Assembly (NCBI RefSeq): GCF_008065095.1
Contig: NZ_CP042911.1
Coordinates: 7,890,001-7,922,000, forward strand
Reading direction: 5' to 3'
DNA length: 32,000 nt
Source: Gemmata obscuriglobus
GTDB lineage: Bacteria; Planctomycetota; Planctomycetia; Gemmatales; Gemmataceae
Below, one piece after another: positions 13,835-29,147 of the stretch. How positions within the stretch are numbered: the stretch's first letter is position 1; each line of letters starts with the position of its first letter. Both the position numbers and the translations under genes were made by a program. Below the pieces are notes generated by a model. That model did not search any database. It saw only the letters and a program-made list of their open reading frames with translations, and was not told the DNA's origin.

Positions 13835-14659
13835 CTACTTGCTGTTCTTCTGAACGAACTCGCGGAACGACTTGTTCAGCGGGTCCGCGTTACTTACGAA
13901 CTGGAAGATGATGGTGTAGTGGTTGCGGTCCTTGCACTTCATCAGTTCGAACGGGCTGTCGGCCTTCTTCAGCGCCGCGCCCATGTCCTCGGCCATCTTG
14001 TCGAGCAGCGGGAAGTCGGTGTCCGCGTAGGCGATGAAGAACGGCGGGCACTTCCCGGTCGCGTGCGTCAGCGGGGACGCCAGCGTGCAGACCTTCTCGT
14101 CCTTGCCGAACGGCACCTCGAACACCCGCTCCGTGTGCAGGATCTTGTACACGCCGCTCAGCGACGCCACGCCCCGGATGTCCGCCGCGCTGCACCGCTC
14201 GGCCTTCAAGTACTGCGGGTCGGTCGCCAGGAGCGAGACGAGGTGCCCGCCGGCCGAGTGCCCGCACAGGAACAACTGGTCCTTCTTCCCGCCGTACTTG
14301 CCGATGTTGTCGCGGGTCCAGGCGAACGCCTTCGCGACATCCTCAATGTGCGCCGGGTGCTGGACCTTGGGCGAGAGTCGGTAGTTGCAGATCACGCACC
14401 CGATGCCGTCGGCCGCGAGCGACTTCCCGAGCACCTCGTACAGGTTCTTGTTGCCGGACTTCCACGAGCCGCCGTGGACGAACAGCACGGTCGGGAAGTC
14501 CTTCTTGCCCTTCGGCGTGTACACGTCGAGGACGTGCCGCTCTTTGTCGGCGTCCTTGTCCGTGCGGTACGCGATGTCGGCGTGCTTCTCGTGCGCCTCG
14601 GGCTTGCCCTCGGCCGGCGCGGCGACACCGACCGCCACCAGCAGCGACAACAGATTCAT
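13835..14659 (-). CDS. alpha/beta hydrolase (esterase/lipase-type)
   Basis: It carries the HGGSW oxyanion motif and the GHSAGG nucleophile elbow. The ATG at 14659 is preceded by GAGG and gives a signal-like MNLLSLLVAVGVAAPAEG. The longer GTG start at 14722 adds a segment with low GC3. Confidence 0.85.
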   Translation of the reverse strand: MNLLSLLVAVGVAAPAEGKPEAHEKHADIAYRTDKDADKERHVLDVYTPKGKKDFPTVLFVHGGSWKSGNKNLYEVLGKSLAADGIGCVICNYRLSPKVQHPAHIEDVAKAFAWTRDNIGKYGGKKDQLFLCGHSAGGHLVSLLATDPQYLKAERCSAADIRGVASLSGVYKILHTERVFEVPFGKDEKVCTLASPLTHATGKCPPFFIAYADTDFPLLDKMAEDMGAALKKADSPFELMKCKDRNHYTIIFQFVSNADPLNKSFREFVQKNSK

Positions 14660-14784
14660 CGCGGCCTCGTCGTCGTTGAGATCGAGTTGGGAAAAGAGCC
14701 GGAGATAACGATTGTAATTCACAAAACCCTCGCGGGAAGACGGGCACGAGAGTTAGAGCCCGCCCCCCGCGAGTGGATTCGCGG

Positions 14785-15138
14785 TCACCCGCCCAGAACC
14801 CGCGCGTACATCTCCTCGTTGAACCCGATCACGAGCGTGCGCCCGACGCGGGCGGTCGGGGCGCGGAGGTTTCCGGTCGGACCCATCATACGCGCGAGCA
14901 GAGTCGCGTCGTCGGGGCGGTCGGTCGTCAGGTCGAACGTCTCCACCTTCTTGCCCTTCGCGGCGACGAGGGTTTCAACGCCGTCGAGCAGCGCGAGGGC
15001 CTCGTCGGCCCCGTAGCGGACCTTGGCGGCGTTGACGGCTTCGGTAACGGGCACAGATTCGGACCCAAGGAACCCCTGGGCTTTCTGGCACGTCATTCAC
15101 CCGCGCCGCTCGTACAGCCAGTCGATTTGCTTCGCCAT
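14785..15138 (-). CDS. ArsC/Spx/YffB-family thioredoxin-fold protein with in-frame TGA (15097-15099) at the first Cys of CxxC; candidate selenoprotein
   Basis: The conventional ORF is 14785-15096 (MTCQKAQGFL...). The codon just upstream is TGA. It is preceded in frame by ATG GCG AAG CAA ATC GAC TGG CTG TAC GAG CGG CGC GGG, with AGGTGG 4 nt before that ATG. The joined product is MAKQIDWLYERRG-U-MTCQKAQGFL. It aligns with YffB TLYGIKNCDTCKKARRWL, and its C-terminal NLRAPTARVGRTLVIGFNEEMY aligns with IIKRPLL...LLGFS. Confidence 0.6.
15054..15087 (-). promoter_or_regulatory. candidate bacterial SECIS hairpin
   Basis: On the mRNA, 16 nt after UGA: GCCCAGG-GGUU-CCUUGGGU, an upper stem of 7-8 bp including two G-U pairs with a GGUU apical loop. 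A lower CAGA/UCUG stem lies across an internal loop. The loop GU is at about +27/28 from the U of UGA. Confidence 0.4.
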
Positions 15139-15250
15139 CGTGCCACCTGTGAGGGAAACGGAAAGCCCGCGAACCACGTTCGCGGGCTTTCGTAGTAACC
15201 GGCCAGCCGTCTACTTCTTAACCTGTGGCGCGGAGCGCTCACGGCACCGC

Positions 15251-15335
15251 CGGGTGATCACCCAATTGCAATATCGGTGAACCACGTCCGGCGAGGTTGT
15301 TTCAGACACCGATATTGCAATTGGGTGATCACCCG
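15251..15335. repeat. 85-bp perfect palindrome (29-bp arms, 27-nt loop), AT-rich relative to surroundings
   Basis: CGGGTGATCACCCAATTGCAATATCGGTG (15251-15279) has its exact reverse complement at 15307-15335. The arms contain nested palindromes GGGTGATCACCC, CAATTG and TTGCAA. The loop is AACCACGTCCGGCGAGGTTGTTTCAGA. Confidence 0.9.
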
Positions 15336-22966: not shown

Positions 22967-24223
22967 CAGTAGTTTCAAGTTGGCGGCTTGGTTTTGTTGG
23001 CCGATCGTGCAGTAGTAATGGACTTATTTTCGCCATCTGTAGGTGCCAGCCCATCGGCCAACAGTATCAGGCATACCGCCGCCAGTGTCCACCCGAGGCC
23101 GCGGGCTGAGCGGGACCACAACCAGGCGTTACGCAGGATCAGCCCGACGGCCACCCACAGGAGTCGCACGACCCCATCGGTGGTCGAGGTCCGGGGCCGA
23201 ACCTGCCCCAACTGGCGGTAGCTGCTCTCGATCCCGAATCGGGTCCGGTACAGGTCCCGAATCGCCACCGGGCTCCCGCTCACCCGCCACGCCGCGTACA
23301 GTAACTTCTTGCTCCGCCGGCCCCCGGTCCGCCGGTACCGGTAGCTCTTGTGAGCGATCACCACGTGCACCCGCACCGAGGTGCCCCGATCCGCGTGGGT
23401 GTACGCATATCGACCCGCGCCCCGCCGCCGCACGGCCCGCAACCCGACCCCCTTCACCCCGGGCCGGGGCTTGCGGCCCCGGACCACGGCCGGGATCACG
23501 AACGGCACACCCCGCGCCTGGAGCAACCGCATCACCGCGATCGAGAAGAACGCCTTGTCCAGCAGCGCGACCCGGACCGTAACCCGTGCCGCCGTCACCT
23601 GATCCAACAGCCGGGTGAGCACCGCGGTCATCGGCTCCTTCTCGCCCACGGCCGTCAACCCGAGCGTGTACCGGTCCGGTCCCCCGACGAGGCACGCGGT
23701 GGCGTACGTGTGGAACGTGTGGGTGCCGCCGGCCCCCTTGGACCGGGTGGTGTCCCGGTTCGGCGTCCCGAAGTACCCGATCCGGTGGTAGTCGATCGCG
23801 ACCCGAGCCGCCCGCTTCCGCTTGCCGAGCGGGGCGTGGAGGGCCGGCCGCAACCGCCGCTCGAGGGTGCGGCGCCGCTTGGGCAGCGTGAGGTACAAGC
23901 AATCCCAGATGGCCTGCCCGGACGGGGCGTCGGCGATCGCGGCACAGGCCGCGGCCACCGAGCGGGCGAACGCCGCGGCGAACAGCACCACCCGCCACAC
24001 CACCTCGGGTGTACAGGTGCGGCGACGCTTGGGCAGTTGGACCGCACGGCCGAGCCAGTCGGTCAGGACCGGACGGAGGTGCCGGGTGGCGTGGGCCGGG
24101 GTGGCTCGGATAGACTGACGTTTGGGTCGCATGGGGGCTCCGACAGTGGAGGCGTGGTAACCACCATTGACCGGTAAACCCATGCGGCCCGCTACTCATA
24201 AATCGCCCAACTTGAAACTACTG
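22967..24223 (-). mobile_element. IS4-superfamily (ISH3-like) element C, 1257 bp, inserted in IS630-B
   Basis: The 17-bp perfect terminal repeats are CAGTAGTTTCAAGTTGG (22967-22983) and CCAACTTGAAACTACTG (24207-24223). The 5-bp duplication TAACT occurs at 22962-22966 and 24224-24228. Confidence 0.85.
22975..24183 (-). CDS. DDE transposase, IS4 superfamily (ISH3-like), apparently intact
   Basis: The 402-aa ORF fills the element. It carries the YRTRFGIESSYRQLGQVR signature (Y-2-R-3-E-6-K type). The ISH3 assignment is by size and duplication length, so it is tentative. Confidence 0.8.
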   Translation of the reverse strand: MGLPVNGGYHASTVGAPMRPKRQSIRATPAHATRHLRPVLTDWLGRAVQLPKRRRTCTPEVVWRVVLFAAAFARSVAAACAAIADAPSGQAIWDCLYLTLPKRRRTLERRLRPALHAPLGKRKRAARVAIDYHRIGYFGTPNRDTTRSKGAGGTHTFHTYATACLVGGPDRYTLGLTAVGEKEPMTAVLTRLLDQVTAARVTVRVALLDKAFFSIAVMRLLQARGVPFVIPAVVRGRKPRPGVKGVGLRAVRRRGAGRYAYTHADRGTSVRVHVVIAHKSYRYRRTGGRRSKKLLYAAWRVSGSPVAIRDLYRTRFGIESSYRQLGQVRPRTSTTDGVVRLLWVAVGLILRNAWLWSRSARGLGWTLAAVCLILLADGLAPTDGENKSITTARSANKTKPPT

Positions 24224-24231
24224 TAACTGGT

Positions 24232-25266
24232 ATGAGCAGACCCATCGGAACGCCTGTCGAACTGGAACGCCGCCGTCAGCAGGCGGTACAAGCTGTTGCG
24301 GGCGGTCCGGCCCGCCAGACGGTCGCGACGGTCCTGGGGGTTCACGTCAAGACCGTGTCCCGCTGGGTCCGGGCCGCACGCACGCCCGGCGGCGTGGCGG
24401 CCAAGGTCCACCCGGGTCCGACCCCAGGCCTGACGGACGACGACCTCAAGCGATTGGCCGAGTTGCTGCTCCAAGGGGCCAAGGCCCACGGGTGGCACAA
24501 CCAGCTCTGGACGGTGGCACGGGTTGCCCGGTTGATCGAGCACGAGTTCCACATCCGGTACCACCCGGAACACGTCCGGGAGATCCTCAAGCGGCGGCTC
24601 GGGTGGACCAGCCAGAAGCCCCGCCGGAAGGCCCGGGAGCGAAACGACAAGGAGGTGGCGAGGTGGGTCGGTGACGAGTTCCCCCGGATCGTCCGGGACG
24701 CGTTCCGCCGCACGGCCCACTTGGTTTTCCTGGACGAGTCGGGGTTCTTCCTGACGCCGACCGTCCGTCGCACCCTGGCCCCGCGGGGGAAGACCCCGGT
24801 CCTGACGGGGTGGGACCGTCGGGATCGACTGTCGGCGATCCGTGCCATTACCGTCAGCCCGGTGGTGGCTCGCCCGAACCTGTTCTTCGAGGTGTTCGAC
24901 CACACCGTCCATGCCGAGCAGGTGGTGGCGTTCCTGGCCGACCTACACCGCCGGTTGGGACCGTTGACGGTCGTCTGGGACCGCGGGGCGATCCACGATA
25001 AGTCCGGGTGCGTGCGGGCGTGGCTGGCGGGGCACCCGGGGGTGGTGACCGAGAAGTTCCCGGGGTACGCTCCGGACCTGAACCCGGACGAGGGCGTGTG
25101 GGGGTGGACCAAGTACGGGCGGCTGTCCAACCTGGCGGCTAACGACACGGACGAGTTGTGGGATCATGTGATCGACGAGTTGGGCACCGCGAAGTCCTCC
25201 CCGAACCTGTTGAAGGCATTCATCCGGGAAGCACGACTGCCGAGCCTATCAATGGCCGCTAAGTAG
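24232..25266 (+). CDS. IS630-family transposase of element B (intact ORF, 344 aa)
   Basis: It has an N-terminal HTH region, then VFLDESGFFLTPTVRRTLAPRGKTP...VVWDRGAIHDKS...FPGYAPDLNPDEGVWGWTK. Its ATG lies 3 nt after the TAACT duplication of element C. Confidence 0.9.
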   Translation: MSRPIGTPVELERRRQQAVQAVAGGPARQTVATVLGVHVKTVSRWVRAARTPGGVAAKVHPGPTPGLTDDDLKRLAELLLQGAKAHGWHNQLWTVARVARLIEHEFHIRYHPEHVREILKRRLGWTSQKPRRKARERNDKEVARWVGDEFPRIVRDAFRRTAHLVFLDESGFFLTPTVRRTLAPRGKTPVLTGWDRRDRLSAIRAITVSPVVARPNLFFEVFDHTVHAEQVVAFLADLHRRLGPLTVVWDRGAIHDKSGCVRAWLAGHPGVVTEKFPGYAPDLNPDEGVWGWTKYGRLSNLAANDTDELWDHVIDELGTAKSSPNLLKAFIREARLPSLSMAAK

Positions 25267-25765: not shown

Positions 25766-27399
25766 GAATGGCACTTCCGTGGTGTTTTTGGGCGTTCGGT
25801 CCAATAGCTGACCTGGGACGCCCGAGGCATCCGGAACAATCGCGTTGTGACGGCTGTGCCGCCTTGGCTACCGGGTCTTCCAACGCTACCGTAAGAGCAG
25901 CATCGAGGTCGTCCACGCTCCGACGGGTCGCGCTGTCGTACGGGCGAGGTCGGGCTCGATGTCTCATTTATACGCTCCGGCGCCCTCGTTCCAAACGGTG
26001 CTCCGCACCTTCGCACCGGCTCCCGATCTGCCCGCGCGTGCGTTGCTCACGGTCGACCAGATCCAGGCCGCCGGCGCGGACCTGGGCGTCGACTTCGCGA
26101 CCGAAGGTCATCACGTCTGGACGCCCGCGCGCACGCTCTGGACCTTCCTGACCCAGTGCCTCAGCACGTCCACGTCCTGTGCGGCGGCGGCGGCGGTGGC
26201 TCTGCGCGTCACCCTCGGGTTGCATCCGTGCTCCGAAGCGACGGGGGCCTACTGTAAGGCCCGCGCCAAGCTCCCGGTCGCCTTGCTCTCCCGACTGGCC
26301 ACTCAGTCGGGCGACGAACTCGAGCGCCACGCGCCCAAGGAGTGGCAATGGAAAGGACGGCGGGTGCTGCTCGGGGATGGCACGACGCTGTCGGGCCCCG
26401 ATACCCCCGCGAACCAAGCTGCGTACCCCCAGCACACGAACCAGAAGCGCGGCCTGGGGTTCCCGCTGATCCGTGTGGTTGTACTCCTGGGGTTCGCGAC
26501 CGGGGCCCTGGTCGGGGCCGCGATCGGACCGGCCAAAGGCAAGGAGGCCGGTGAGATGGCCCTACTGCGGGAGTTGCTCGACCGGTTCCAAGCGGGCGAC
26601 GTGTTCGTCGCCGACCGGGCGTATTGCTCGTACTGGTTGGTGTCGGCGTTACAGGCCCGTGGGGTCGATGTGGCCATCCGGTTGCACCAATCCCGGCACT
26701 ACGACTTCGGCGCCGGCCCCCCGCCGGGGCGATGACGATCACGTGGTCACGTGGGACCGACCCGCGCGTCCCGATTGGATGGACAAGGCGACGTATCACG
26801 CGATGCCGACAGCCGTGACGATTCGCGAGGTCCGGTTCCGGGTGAAGCGCCCCGGGTATCGAACCCGCGAGATCGTCGTGGCGACCACACTAACGGACGC
26901 CACCGCGTACACACGCGAGGACCTGGCGCAGTTGTACCACCACCGGTGGCGGGTCGAGCTTTGGATCCGCGACATCAAGCAGACGTTGGCAATGGACGTG
27001 TTAGGCGGGAAGACGCCGGAGATGCTACGTCGCGAGATCTGGTGCCACCTGTTGGCGTACAACGTGGTGCGCCACGTGATCGCCCAGGCGGCGCGTGCGC
27101 GGAACCGGTGCCCGCGTCAGATCAGCGTGACCGGTGCGCGGGATCTGTTGAATGCGTTCCGCGAGTCCTTATCCACCGAGACCGTTGCCGGGTGGGAGAA
27201 GAAGGTCGCGGTGCTGTTGCATGCGATCGGGGGTCGGCGCGTCGGTCGTCGCCCGGGTCGGTGCGAGCCTCGGGAAGTCAAGCGACGCCCCAAAAGCGAC
27301 TGGTGGATGACGAAGCCGCGAGCCGAACGACGCGCCGAGCTGTTAGCCAATAAGGCAGCGAGTAATTTACACAAACAGAAACTCACGGAAGTGCCATTC
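25766..27399 (+). mobile_element. IS4-family element E (about 1.63 kb)
   Basis: The terminal repeats are GAATGGCACTTCCGTG (25766-25781) and CACGGAAGTGCCATTC (27384-27399), perfect over 16 bp. No target-site duplication is visible. Confidence 0.75.
25959..27399 (+). pseudogene. IS4-family DDE transposase, frameshifted in a C6 run (26717-26722); no stop codon inside the element
   Basis: The first part runs ...GDGTTLSGPDTPANQAAYPQ...GDVFVADRAYCSYWL...RLHQSRHYDF. The second frame runs DDHVVTWDRPARPDWM...YHHRWRVELWIRDIKQTL...RPGRCEPREVKRRPK. Deleting one C restores HYDFGAGPRRGDDDHVV. Confidence 0.8.
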
Positions 27400-27553: not shown

Positions 27554-29032
27554 CTGTAGTTTCCGCGAATCGGCCGCGCTCACGCGGCCAGATCCAAGCA
27601 CCGGTGGGCGAGGTCGCGGATTTTCGCGTGGTCGTGGTGCTCGCCCACAACGGCCTGAATCTCCTGGGCCAACAGCTCGTGTTGCCAGGCCCGGCGCTTG
27701 TCCGCGTGGCTCGGGCGCCGGTTCGGGTCGTCCCACGGGGATGCGGATCGGTGCCCCACCAGGGCCTCGGCGTTCTGGTTCCAGGCCCACACCTCGGTCA
27801 GGGTGTGGGCCCACGCGCACAGGTGGAAGCACCCCACGTTCGACGGCACCCCGCGCACCTGCTGCTGACCCGCCCCGGCGACTTGTTTGAGATCCCGAAA
27901 ACAGGTCTCCAGGGTGAACCGGTCGGCCACCCGCTCCAGGATGTCGGCCACGGTCGCGGTGGTGTCGGTGCCGAAGAACGCGACCCATCCGTGGGGCTCG
28001 TCCACCAACACCACCCGGATCGCCCCACCGGCCGGGCGCCACGTGGCCACGAACGTCTTGTACCGCTTCTCGACCGACTTCCCGTACACGGTGAACATGC
28101 CGGTGCTCCACCCGCCGGGGTGGGCGGCCCGCTTGGCCAGCGACACCCGCTCGGTCCCGTACACCCGCGGCCGCCCGGGCCGCCCGGGCACTCGCGCCGG
28201 TGGCACCGAGCACAGGGCCGCATCCCGGCGCAGTCGGCTCACCACCGTCACCCCGAGCTTCCGCAGCGGCTTGAGCACCGGCCCCTGGGCGTACGCCCCG
28301 TCGGCCACCACCCACACCGCCTTCCCCCACAACGCCAGCCACCCGTGCGCCCACCGCACCAAGCCCACGGCCATGGTCAGCTTGGTTGCGAACGGGGGCC
28401 GGTCCGCCGCCCGAACCGCCCCCAGGTTCGCCTTCCGGATGTACCGCCGGGCCAACAGGGGTAACGCCACGACCCCGCCCAGCGGGTGCGCCACCAGCAA
28501 CCCGAGGACCACCCACACGTGCCCGTACACGAACCCGCTCCCGGCCGGCCCGGGGGTCGGGTTGTGGTGCACCCCGGCCCCTTGCACCTGGGAACCGTAC
28601 CGCGCCGTCGGGGTGTCATCCAACGCGAGCACGACCCGCGGCCCGGTCACCAACGGCCGGAGCACCTCGACCAACAACCGGGTGGCGATGGCCTCGGCCC
28701 GGCGCCCGACGGCGGCCGCGGTGGGGTAGCAGCGGCGGTACTGGGACGACAACCCGGCGGCTCGGATCCAGCAACTCCGGGCCTGTCGCCCGCGGGCCAA
28801 CAGCACCCCCAGGAACAACAGCGCCAACCGCCGGCCCGAGCGCCGATCCAAGGCACCGGCCAGAATCGAAAACCACTGGCACCGCGGGGCCGGAGTGTGC
28901 GAAGATGGCATCGCCGCGTCCGTTCGGGTTGGGAGGTCGTGTGGTAACGCCATCCTCCCGGACGGGCCGGCATTCGTCTACTCCGAACGTACCACCATCA
29001 CCGCCCGGCCTACAAATTCGCGGAAAGTACAG
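27554..29032 (-). mobile_element. IS701-family element F (1479 bp) with a 7-bp duplication
   Basis: The ends are CTGTAGTTTCCGCGAAT (27554-27570) and ATTCGCGGAAAGTACAG (29016-29032), matching 16 of 17. The direct repeat TTTTGCT occurs at 27547-27553 and 29033-29039. Confidence 0.8.
27580..28953 (-). CDS. IS701-family DDE transposase (intact, 457 aa)
   Basis: The sequence has VLALDDTPTARYG..., WVVADGAYA..., and FTLETCFRDLKQVAGAGQQQVR, typical IS701/DDE_5-type blocks. Confidence 0.85.
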   Translation of the reverse strand: MALPHDLPTRTDAAMPSSHTPAPRCQWFSILAGALDRRSGRRLALLFLGVLLARGRQARSCWIRAAGLSSQYRRCYPTAAAVGRRAEAIATRLLVEVLRPLVTGPRVVLALDDTPTARYGSQVQGAGVHHNPTPGPAGSGFVYGHVWVVLGLLVAHPLGGVVALPLLARRYIRKANLGAVRAADRPPFATKLTMAVGLVRWAHGWLALWGKAVWVVADGAYAQGPVLKPLRKLGVTVVSRLRRDAALCSVPPARVPGRPGRPRVYGTERVSLAKRAAHPGGWSTGMFTVYGKSVEKRYKTFVATWRPAGGAIRVVLVDEPHGWVAFFGTDTTATVADILERVADRFTLETCFRDLKQVAGAGQQQVRGVPSNVGCFHLCAWAHTLTEVWAWNQNAEALVGHRSASPWDDPNRRPSHADKRRAWQHELLAQEIQAVVGEHHDHAKIRDLAHRCLDLAA

Positions 29033-29060
29033 TTTTGCTGCGATTCGTTGAGATTTGCAG

Positions 29061-29147
29061 CGGAAGGGCAGGGATTCGAACCCTGGAACGCCTTTCGGCG
29101 TTGCCGGTTTTCAAGACCGGTGCAATCGACCACTCTGCCACCCTTCC
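29061..29147 (-). tRNA. tRNA-Ser (anticodon UGA), class II with long variable arm
   Basis: The reverse complement reads GGAAGGG TG GCAGAGTGGTCGATTGC A CCGGT CTTGAAA ACCGG CAACGCCGAAAGGCGTT CCAGGGTTCGAATCCCTG CCCTTCC G. The acceptor stem is GGAAGGG/CCCTTCC and the T-loop is TTCGAAT. Confidence 0.9.

Follow-up and report, generated by a model that had tools for sequence, protein, structure and literature searches.

An in-frame UGA codon in a window of 32,000 nucleotides (nt) from Gemmata obscuriglobus, which is the whole stretch of DNA that was analyzed here, very probably encodes selenocysteine (Sec) in a selenoprotein of 117 amino acids, as judged from sequence comparisons. The 103-amino acid "hypothetical protein" that is deposited in GenBank for this locus is an annotation artefact, which comes from taking the Sec-UGA as a stop codon. 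In the mechanism that we propose, a SECIS hairpin located within the coding sequence, 15-34 nt past the UGA, would recruit SelB carrying Sec-tRNA(Sec), and it is because of this recruitment that the UGA would be decoded as Sec; both SelB recruitment and Sec insertion are drawn from the established mechanism of Sec decoding in bacteria. Delivery of Sec by SelB would give helix 1 a redox centre, U-M-T-C, at its N-terminus, and the protein would then work as a selenol/thiol oxidoreductase. Translation through the UGA as Sec had been put forward in a preliminary description of this DNA; it is supported by orthologues with Cys at the same position, by conservation of the segment upstream of the UGA, by the lack of a start codon after the UGA in most Sec-form orthologues, and by a covarying SECIS hairpin.

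The gene lies on the minus strand (Table 1). The open reading frame (ORF) that had been called at 14785-15096 begins with the ATG at 15096-15094, reads MTCQKAQGFL... and ends after 103 amino acids with the TGA at 14787-14785. Immediately upstream of its ATG is the TGA at 15099-15097, which gives the junction UGAAUG in G. obscuriglobus, and this TGA is itself preceded by 13 in-frame sense codons (MAKQIDWLYERRG) that follow the ATG at 15138-15136. The called ORF, the TGA directly upstream of it, and the 13 sense codons with AGGTGG 4 nt before their ATG were all found as the preliminary description had given them. The TGA is not a sequencing error, since 13 independently assembled contigs from G. 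obscuriglobus assemblies contain identical DNA; ABGO01000479, a contig of G. obscuriglobus UQM 2246, carries the locus. The 103-amino acid ORF is 100% identical to the "hypothetical protein" entries AWM35640.1, QEG31831.1 (GobsT_66770), and VTS11177.1, and is also recorded as C1280_00450 and UniProt A0A2Z3H3U2.

Table 1. Features of the proposed selenoprotein gene and its leader; positions are those of the window.
Feature	Position	Strand	Details and basis
Complete selenoprotein gene (proposed)	14785..15138	(-)	117 codons (M1...G117), Sec at codon 14, terminal TGA at 14787-14785; translation, NF041106 match, full-length Cys homologues
Shine-Dalgarno-like AGGTGG	15143..15148	(-)	Separated by 4 nt from the ATG at 15138-15136; seen in the sequence itself
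In-frame UGA, residue 14, read as Sec	15097..15099	(-)	First position of UxxC; codon alignment (n=81), alignment with Spx and 2m46
TGC, Cys17	15088..15090	(-)	Second (resolving) residue of U-M-T-C; invariant in 36 full-length Cys forms
Bacterial SECIS hairpin	15063..15081	(-)	8-bp stem GCCCAGGG/CCUUGGGU, GUU triloop at 15073-15071; within the coding sequence, encodes A-Q-G-F-L-G
Family signature GPTGNLRAP	14857..14883	(-)	Residues 86-94; invariant or nearly so in family alignments
Perfect 14-bp leader hairpin	15161..15191	(-)	GAAAGCCCGCGAAC-GUG-GUUCGCGGGCUUUC; 23 nt upstream of the ATG; repeat search

The product joined across the UGA is a thioredoxin-fold protein of 117 residues; its superfamily is ArsC/Spx/YffB and its subfamily NF041106. 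For profile searches Sec was written as Cys in the joined sequence, which matched the NCBIfam model NF041106, "ArsC family (seleno)protein" (ArsC_rel_Se_1), with 142.2 bits (cut-off 85, E 8e-42). Residues 5-111 of the joined product are matched to positions 1-107 of the 107 in the model, and because the match spans the whole model, the segment upstream of the UGA is part of what NF041106 describes. The Pfam family ArsC (PF03960) is reached marginally by the joined product (27.2 bits, cut-off 24), whereas the truncated 103-amino acid ORF stays below the cut-off (23.2 bits). When the family profile was compared with the PDB, the matches were the ArsC-like structure 2m46 (E 2e-9), several Spx structures, and YffB; in these profile alignments the CxxC motif of Spx and of 2m46 has its first Cys at the UGA position, which bears out the earlier claim that the codon falls on the redox-active Cys of ArsC/Spx/YffB proteins.

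Relatives of the gene were collected with the peptide GPTGNLRAP as the search pattern, which led to 599 confirmed genomic relatives. A species-level set (n=81) was made up of the window and 80 loci from a scan of one genome per species; these loci come from Gemmataceae, Isosphaeraceae, Pirellulaceae, Phycisphaerae, Acidobacteriota, Methylomirabilia/Rokubacteria, and other groups. Five metagenome-assembled loci (L017, L018, L021, L025, and L051) are close Gemmataceae-like copies that carry the labels "uncultured Alcaligenaceae" or "Bacteroidales"; the labels are probably due to mis-binning or wrong taxonomy and do not reflect the real distribution. At the position of 15099-15097, the alignment has TGA in 66 of the 81 sequences, TGT in 8, and TGC in 7, and never TAA or TAG (0/81), while the second Cys of the U/CxxC motif is kept in all 81. 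Upstream of this codon, the peptide IDWxYxR is kept equally in Sec and Cys forms, with W, Y, and R invariant and I and D nearly so, and an in-frame start codon is found 12-15 codons 5' of the TGA, with no stop between, in 63 of 65 Sec forms. Since the TGA, the upstream peptide, and the hairpin described below recur together in 66 of the 81 species-level sequences, the arrangement is far beyond chance.

This distribution bears on a first alternative, that the locus is a pseudogene in which an ordinary Cys-type ArsC-like gene recently acquired a nonsense mutation from TGC or TGT to TGA. A single base change would be enough, and Cys forms do occur in close relatives such as Gemmata massiliana. 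However, a recent mutation does not fit a TGA that is shared across several phyla at a position where TAA and TAG are never seen; in addition, both flanks of the codon are intact and conserved without frameshifts, and the SECIS-like hairpin co-occurs only with TGA. We regard decay of a Cys-type gene as an extremely improbable account of the locus.

Protein searches returned two length classes, one of 116-117 amino acids, which reads ...IDWLYxRKSCxTCxKA..., and one of 102-103 or 87-89 amino acids, which starts no earlier than the residue just after the Cys. The full-length Cys homologues of the first class place their Cys exactly on the UGA and span the 13 upstream residues, which is what the preliminary description had proposed to check. 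The outcome that it had named as contrary evidence, orthologues that start at the downstream Met behind an unconserved upstream region, was not what the alignments contained: the upstream region is conserved, and in 50 of the 65 Sec forms the codon after the TGA is one that is unable to initiate translation (ACN, AGC, AAC, TCG, or AAG).

The deposited annotation would be right if the UGA were a stop codon and translation of a 103-amino acid protein began at the AUG at 15096, with the 13 preceding codons being a non-functional leader or mini-ORF. Three GenBank submissions and UniProt have made this call, the AUG adjoins the UGA in this genome, and ATG or GTG occupies the same place in 15 of the 65 Sec-form orthologues (AUG in 12 of them). 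Nevertheless, a start at the downstream Met fails for the family, because the start codon is lacking in the other 50 and the upstream region is conserved, and it is conserved as protein, matching the full-length Cys forms in the IDWxYxR peptide. The 103-amino acid product would also be without strand 1 and the first redox residue, and it is this shortened form, not the joined one, that drops under the Pfam ArsC cut-off. A stop at the UGA is thus highly unlikely, and the Met that follows it in Gemmata is incidental. Under the Sec reading, the AUG right after the UGA may still permit some initiation or re-initiation in this genome, which would give the 103-amino acid product. That the UGAAUG overlap in Gemmata works as a selenium-dependent switch, in which ribosomes would terminate and re-initiate to make the 103-amino acid product when selenium is scarce, is quite unlikely, because AUG is found at this place in so few of the Sec forms.

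Reading of the UGA as Sec is further supported by the hairpin that follows it (Table 1), which starts 15 nt past the UGA, has its loop 23 nt past the UGA, and has a predicted minimum free energy (MFE) of -11.3 kcal/mol. The preliminary description had drawn a hairpin after the TGA with arms of 7/8 nt and a GGUU loop above a CAGA/UCUG lower stem. A hairpin is indeed present, but the 8-bp stem with a GUU loop fits better than the arms and loop that had been drawn; the lower stem folds in the window sequence but was not recovered among orthologues (RNAalifold, 64 sequences). Bacterial SECIS (bSECIS) elements have been described as having an apical loop of 3-9 nt with a G in the first two loop positions, a stem of 4-16 bp, 16-37 nt between UGA and loop, and an MFE of -7.5 kcal/mol or lower (PMC13188914, Fig. 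2), and the window hairpin falls within all four of these criteria (8 bp, 3-nt loop GUU, 23 nt, -11.3 kcal/mol). A search of Rfam returned no SECIS or other relevant family for 14700-15300 at E up to 10, and only tRNAs for the whole window at gathering scores.

Conservation of the hairpin was assessed in 64 distinct Sec forms, in which 91.4% of cells are paired between alignment columns 19-26 and 30-37. Controls in which the partner columns were slid gave 30-59% pairing, and none of 500 shuffles reached the observed pairing or covariation score. Covariation is strong at two of the pairs: columns 21:35 are occupied by GC in 29 Sec forms, UA in 17, and CG in 15, and columns 26:30 by GC in 41 and AU in 19. 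The base in column 21 has the third, synonymous position of an Ala codon (GCC, GCU, or GCG), and column 35, 14 nt away, corresponds to the middle base of the codon that comes five positions on (GGG Gly, GAG Glu, or GCG Ala); because selection at the protein level cannot couple a synonymous Ala base with a non-synonymous base, the coupling of these columns points to an RNA stem. The stem also includes a joint switch from GGG/UUC (Gly-Phe) to GAG/UUU (Glu-Phe), and the SECIS of this family is thus a clean case of an RNA stem dictating the choice of amino acids. Among 15 Cys forms only 39% of the hairpin cells are paired, and the mean hairpin MFE is -4.5 kcal/mol in Cys forms vs. -11.4 kcal/mol in Sec forms. 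At three loci (L048, L053, and L082) the hairpin is shifted by one nucleotide (GCCCAAG-AGUU-CUUGGGC). Lying within the published constraints, covarying in Sec forms, and absent from Cys forms, the hairpin of the window conforms to the bacterial SECIS pattern that the preliminary description had proposed for it.

A further alternative is read-through of the UGA without Sec, by a near-cognate tRNA (Trp or Cys) or under a reassigned genetic code. UGA stops 10 of the 17 genes in the window, the selenoprotein gene included, and since it is an ordinary stop codon for these genes, a reassigned code is ruled out. The residue that homologues have in place of the UGA is Cys, not Trp or Gly, and read-through of this kind would leave unexplained a conserved, covarying hairpin at the distance of a SECIS. 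The literature also credits G. obscuriglobus with complete Sec machinery: a full set of Sec-insertion genes is listed with IMG identifiers for selA, selB, selC, and selD (PMC4807772, Table S8), and G. obscuriglobus UQM 2246 is counted among Sec-utilizing organisms, with 3 known selenoproteins (PMC5029168, Table S2). Read-through without Sec is therefore very improbable. No gene of the machinery was found near the locus: a Pfam scan gave none among 16 ORFs of the window, ARAGORN detected tRNA-Sec neither in the window nor at any of the 80 related loci, and tblastn with E. coli SelD and SelA queries gave no match in the regions that flank the related loci. The tRNA at 29060-29147 (minus strand) is an ordinary tRNA-Ser with a long variable arm, whose anticodon UGA reads UCA codons; it is not tRNA-Sec (selC).

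The selenoprotein reading is right but it is already known: publications exist on the family and its Sec form with UxxC, as well as on the Sec trait of the organism. The NF041106 family is the "Arsenate reductase-like protein, UxxC" of a 2026 review of selenoproteomes (PMC13188914). An "Arsenate reductase 2, UxxC" appeared in a 2008 analysis of GOS data (PMC2398784), and a 2016 survey reported UxxC arsenate reductase-like selenoproteins in 12-14 organisms, under the name "Arsenate reductase-like (UXXC-containing)" (PMC5029168); these two entries probably represent NF041106 or a closely related family. PGAP already gives Gemmata proteins the name "ArsC family (seleno)protein". Novelty was overestimated in the preliminary description, given that the curated NF041106 model and the published catalogues already cover a UxxC ArsC-like family. 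Nothing here is new in kind, and what remains as news is the mis-annotation in GenBank and UniProt: three GenBank records and UniProt A0A2Z3H3U2 carry the 103-amino acid call in place of a selenoprotein of 117 amino acids with Sec at residue 14, and many metagenomic calls of 87-103 amino acids in the NF041106 family are shortened in the same way.

Both forms of the protein are found within Gemmata. The Sec form occurs in G. obscuriglobus, G. algarum, and Gemmata sp. IIL30, and the truncated call of 89 amino acids in SH-PL17 suggests that this strain has it as well; in G. massiliana the protein is of the Cys form and the hairpin is missing. Such a split within the genus is typical of Sec/Cys exchange.

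The neighbors of the gene in the window encode an alpha/beta hydrolase, a metallophosphoesterase, and an SDR protein; no ars genes are found among them. Clustering of the neighborhoods of all 81 loci identified no conserved partner gene beyond the local synteny of close relatives, and the largest cluster is the antisense ORF of the selenoprotein gene itself. The alpha/beta hydrolase gene (BD-FAE/Abhydrolase_3; 13835-14722, minus strand) follows the selenoprotein gene on the same strand after 62 nt, but the hydrolase is probably not a functional partner, because this arrangement is limited to about 7 closely related loci. Upstream of the gene, the leader hairpin (Table 1) is conserved, along with about 60 nt of leader, in Gemmata algarum, Gemmata sp. 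IIL30, and one further locus (L007), and it shows compensatory changes in Frigoriglobus (L008). It had no Rfam match and no clear U-tract, and it could serve as a terminator for the gene upstream or as a leader structure; whether it belongs to the selenoprotein gene is uncertain. Further upstream is a perfect inverted repeat of 29 nt (15251-15279/15307-15335) with a 27-nt spacer and TGATCA and CAATTG palindromes, which is single-copy in the window. It probably breaks assemblies, since four short-read contigs of G. obscuriglobus (L001-L004) all end at about this repeat. Elsewhere the window is rich in insertion sequences, as indicated by five ORFs with DDE transposase domains (DDE_Tnp_1, DDE_3, or DDE_5) at 1760-2515, 22975-24183, 24232-25266, 25959-26735, and 27580-28953.

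To place the protein among known structures, a Cys-form homologue (P0002, 73% identical) was modelled in place of the Sec protein. The AlphaFold2 model of this homologue (pLDDT 93.4) has strand 7-10 followed by helix 15-27, whose N-terminus carries the Cys that stands for Sec. In the thioredoxin fold, this is the classic position of the active site. By analogy with other CxxC/UxxC proteins of this fold, the protein is most likely a thiol/selenol-disulfide oxidoreductase. The best Foldseek matches of the model are Spx, YffB, and ArsC-family proteins, with a TM-score of only about 0.5, and because even the nearest solved structures reach no higher than this, NF041106 is a divergent subfamily.

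The closest known system is NF041106 itself, which shares with the protein the UxxC motif, the mixture of Sec and Cys forms, and a size of about 116 amino acids; nothing of substance differs. The Spx/MgsR proteins (TIGR01617; PDB 1z3e, 3gfk, and 6gho), which are regulators that sense redox state and bind RNA polymerase, share the ArsC-like thioredoxin fold and an N-terminal CxxC at the equivalent position, were matched by profile in the PDB with E 3e-6 to 7e-6, and are among the best Foldseek matches. However, the TIGR01617 score (26.7 bits) is under the curated cut-off of 75.05, the structures superimpose with an rmsd of 6-7 Å at the TM-score given above, and the GPTGNLRAP signature and a beta-hairpin predicted at 56-69 are features of the NF041106 protein and not of Spx. 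The glutaredoxin-coupled arsenate reductases of the R773 type (ArsC; PF03960/TIGR00014) belong to the same Pfam family and have their nucleophile at the same N-terminal position, but their motif is CxxS, or UxxS in the selenoprotein form "Arsenate reductase 1", whereas the motif here is UxxC; moreover, the TIGR00014 equivalog is absent from the matches of the joined product at E up to 1, and the ars operon context is lacking. YffB (PA3664; PDB 1rw1) resembles the protein in superfamily fold and size (profile E 2.7e-4, Foldseek TM 0.54) but is only about 19% identical to it across the structural alignment. With a signature of its own, a predicted beta-hairpin insert, and this distance from solved structures, it is plausible that NF041106 is a distinct selenol/thiol oxidoreductase, neither an arsenate reductase nor a regulator of the Spx type.
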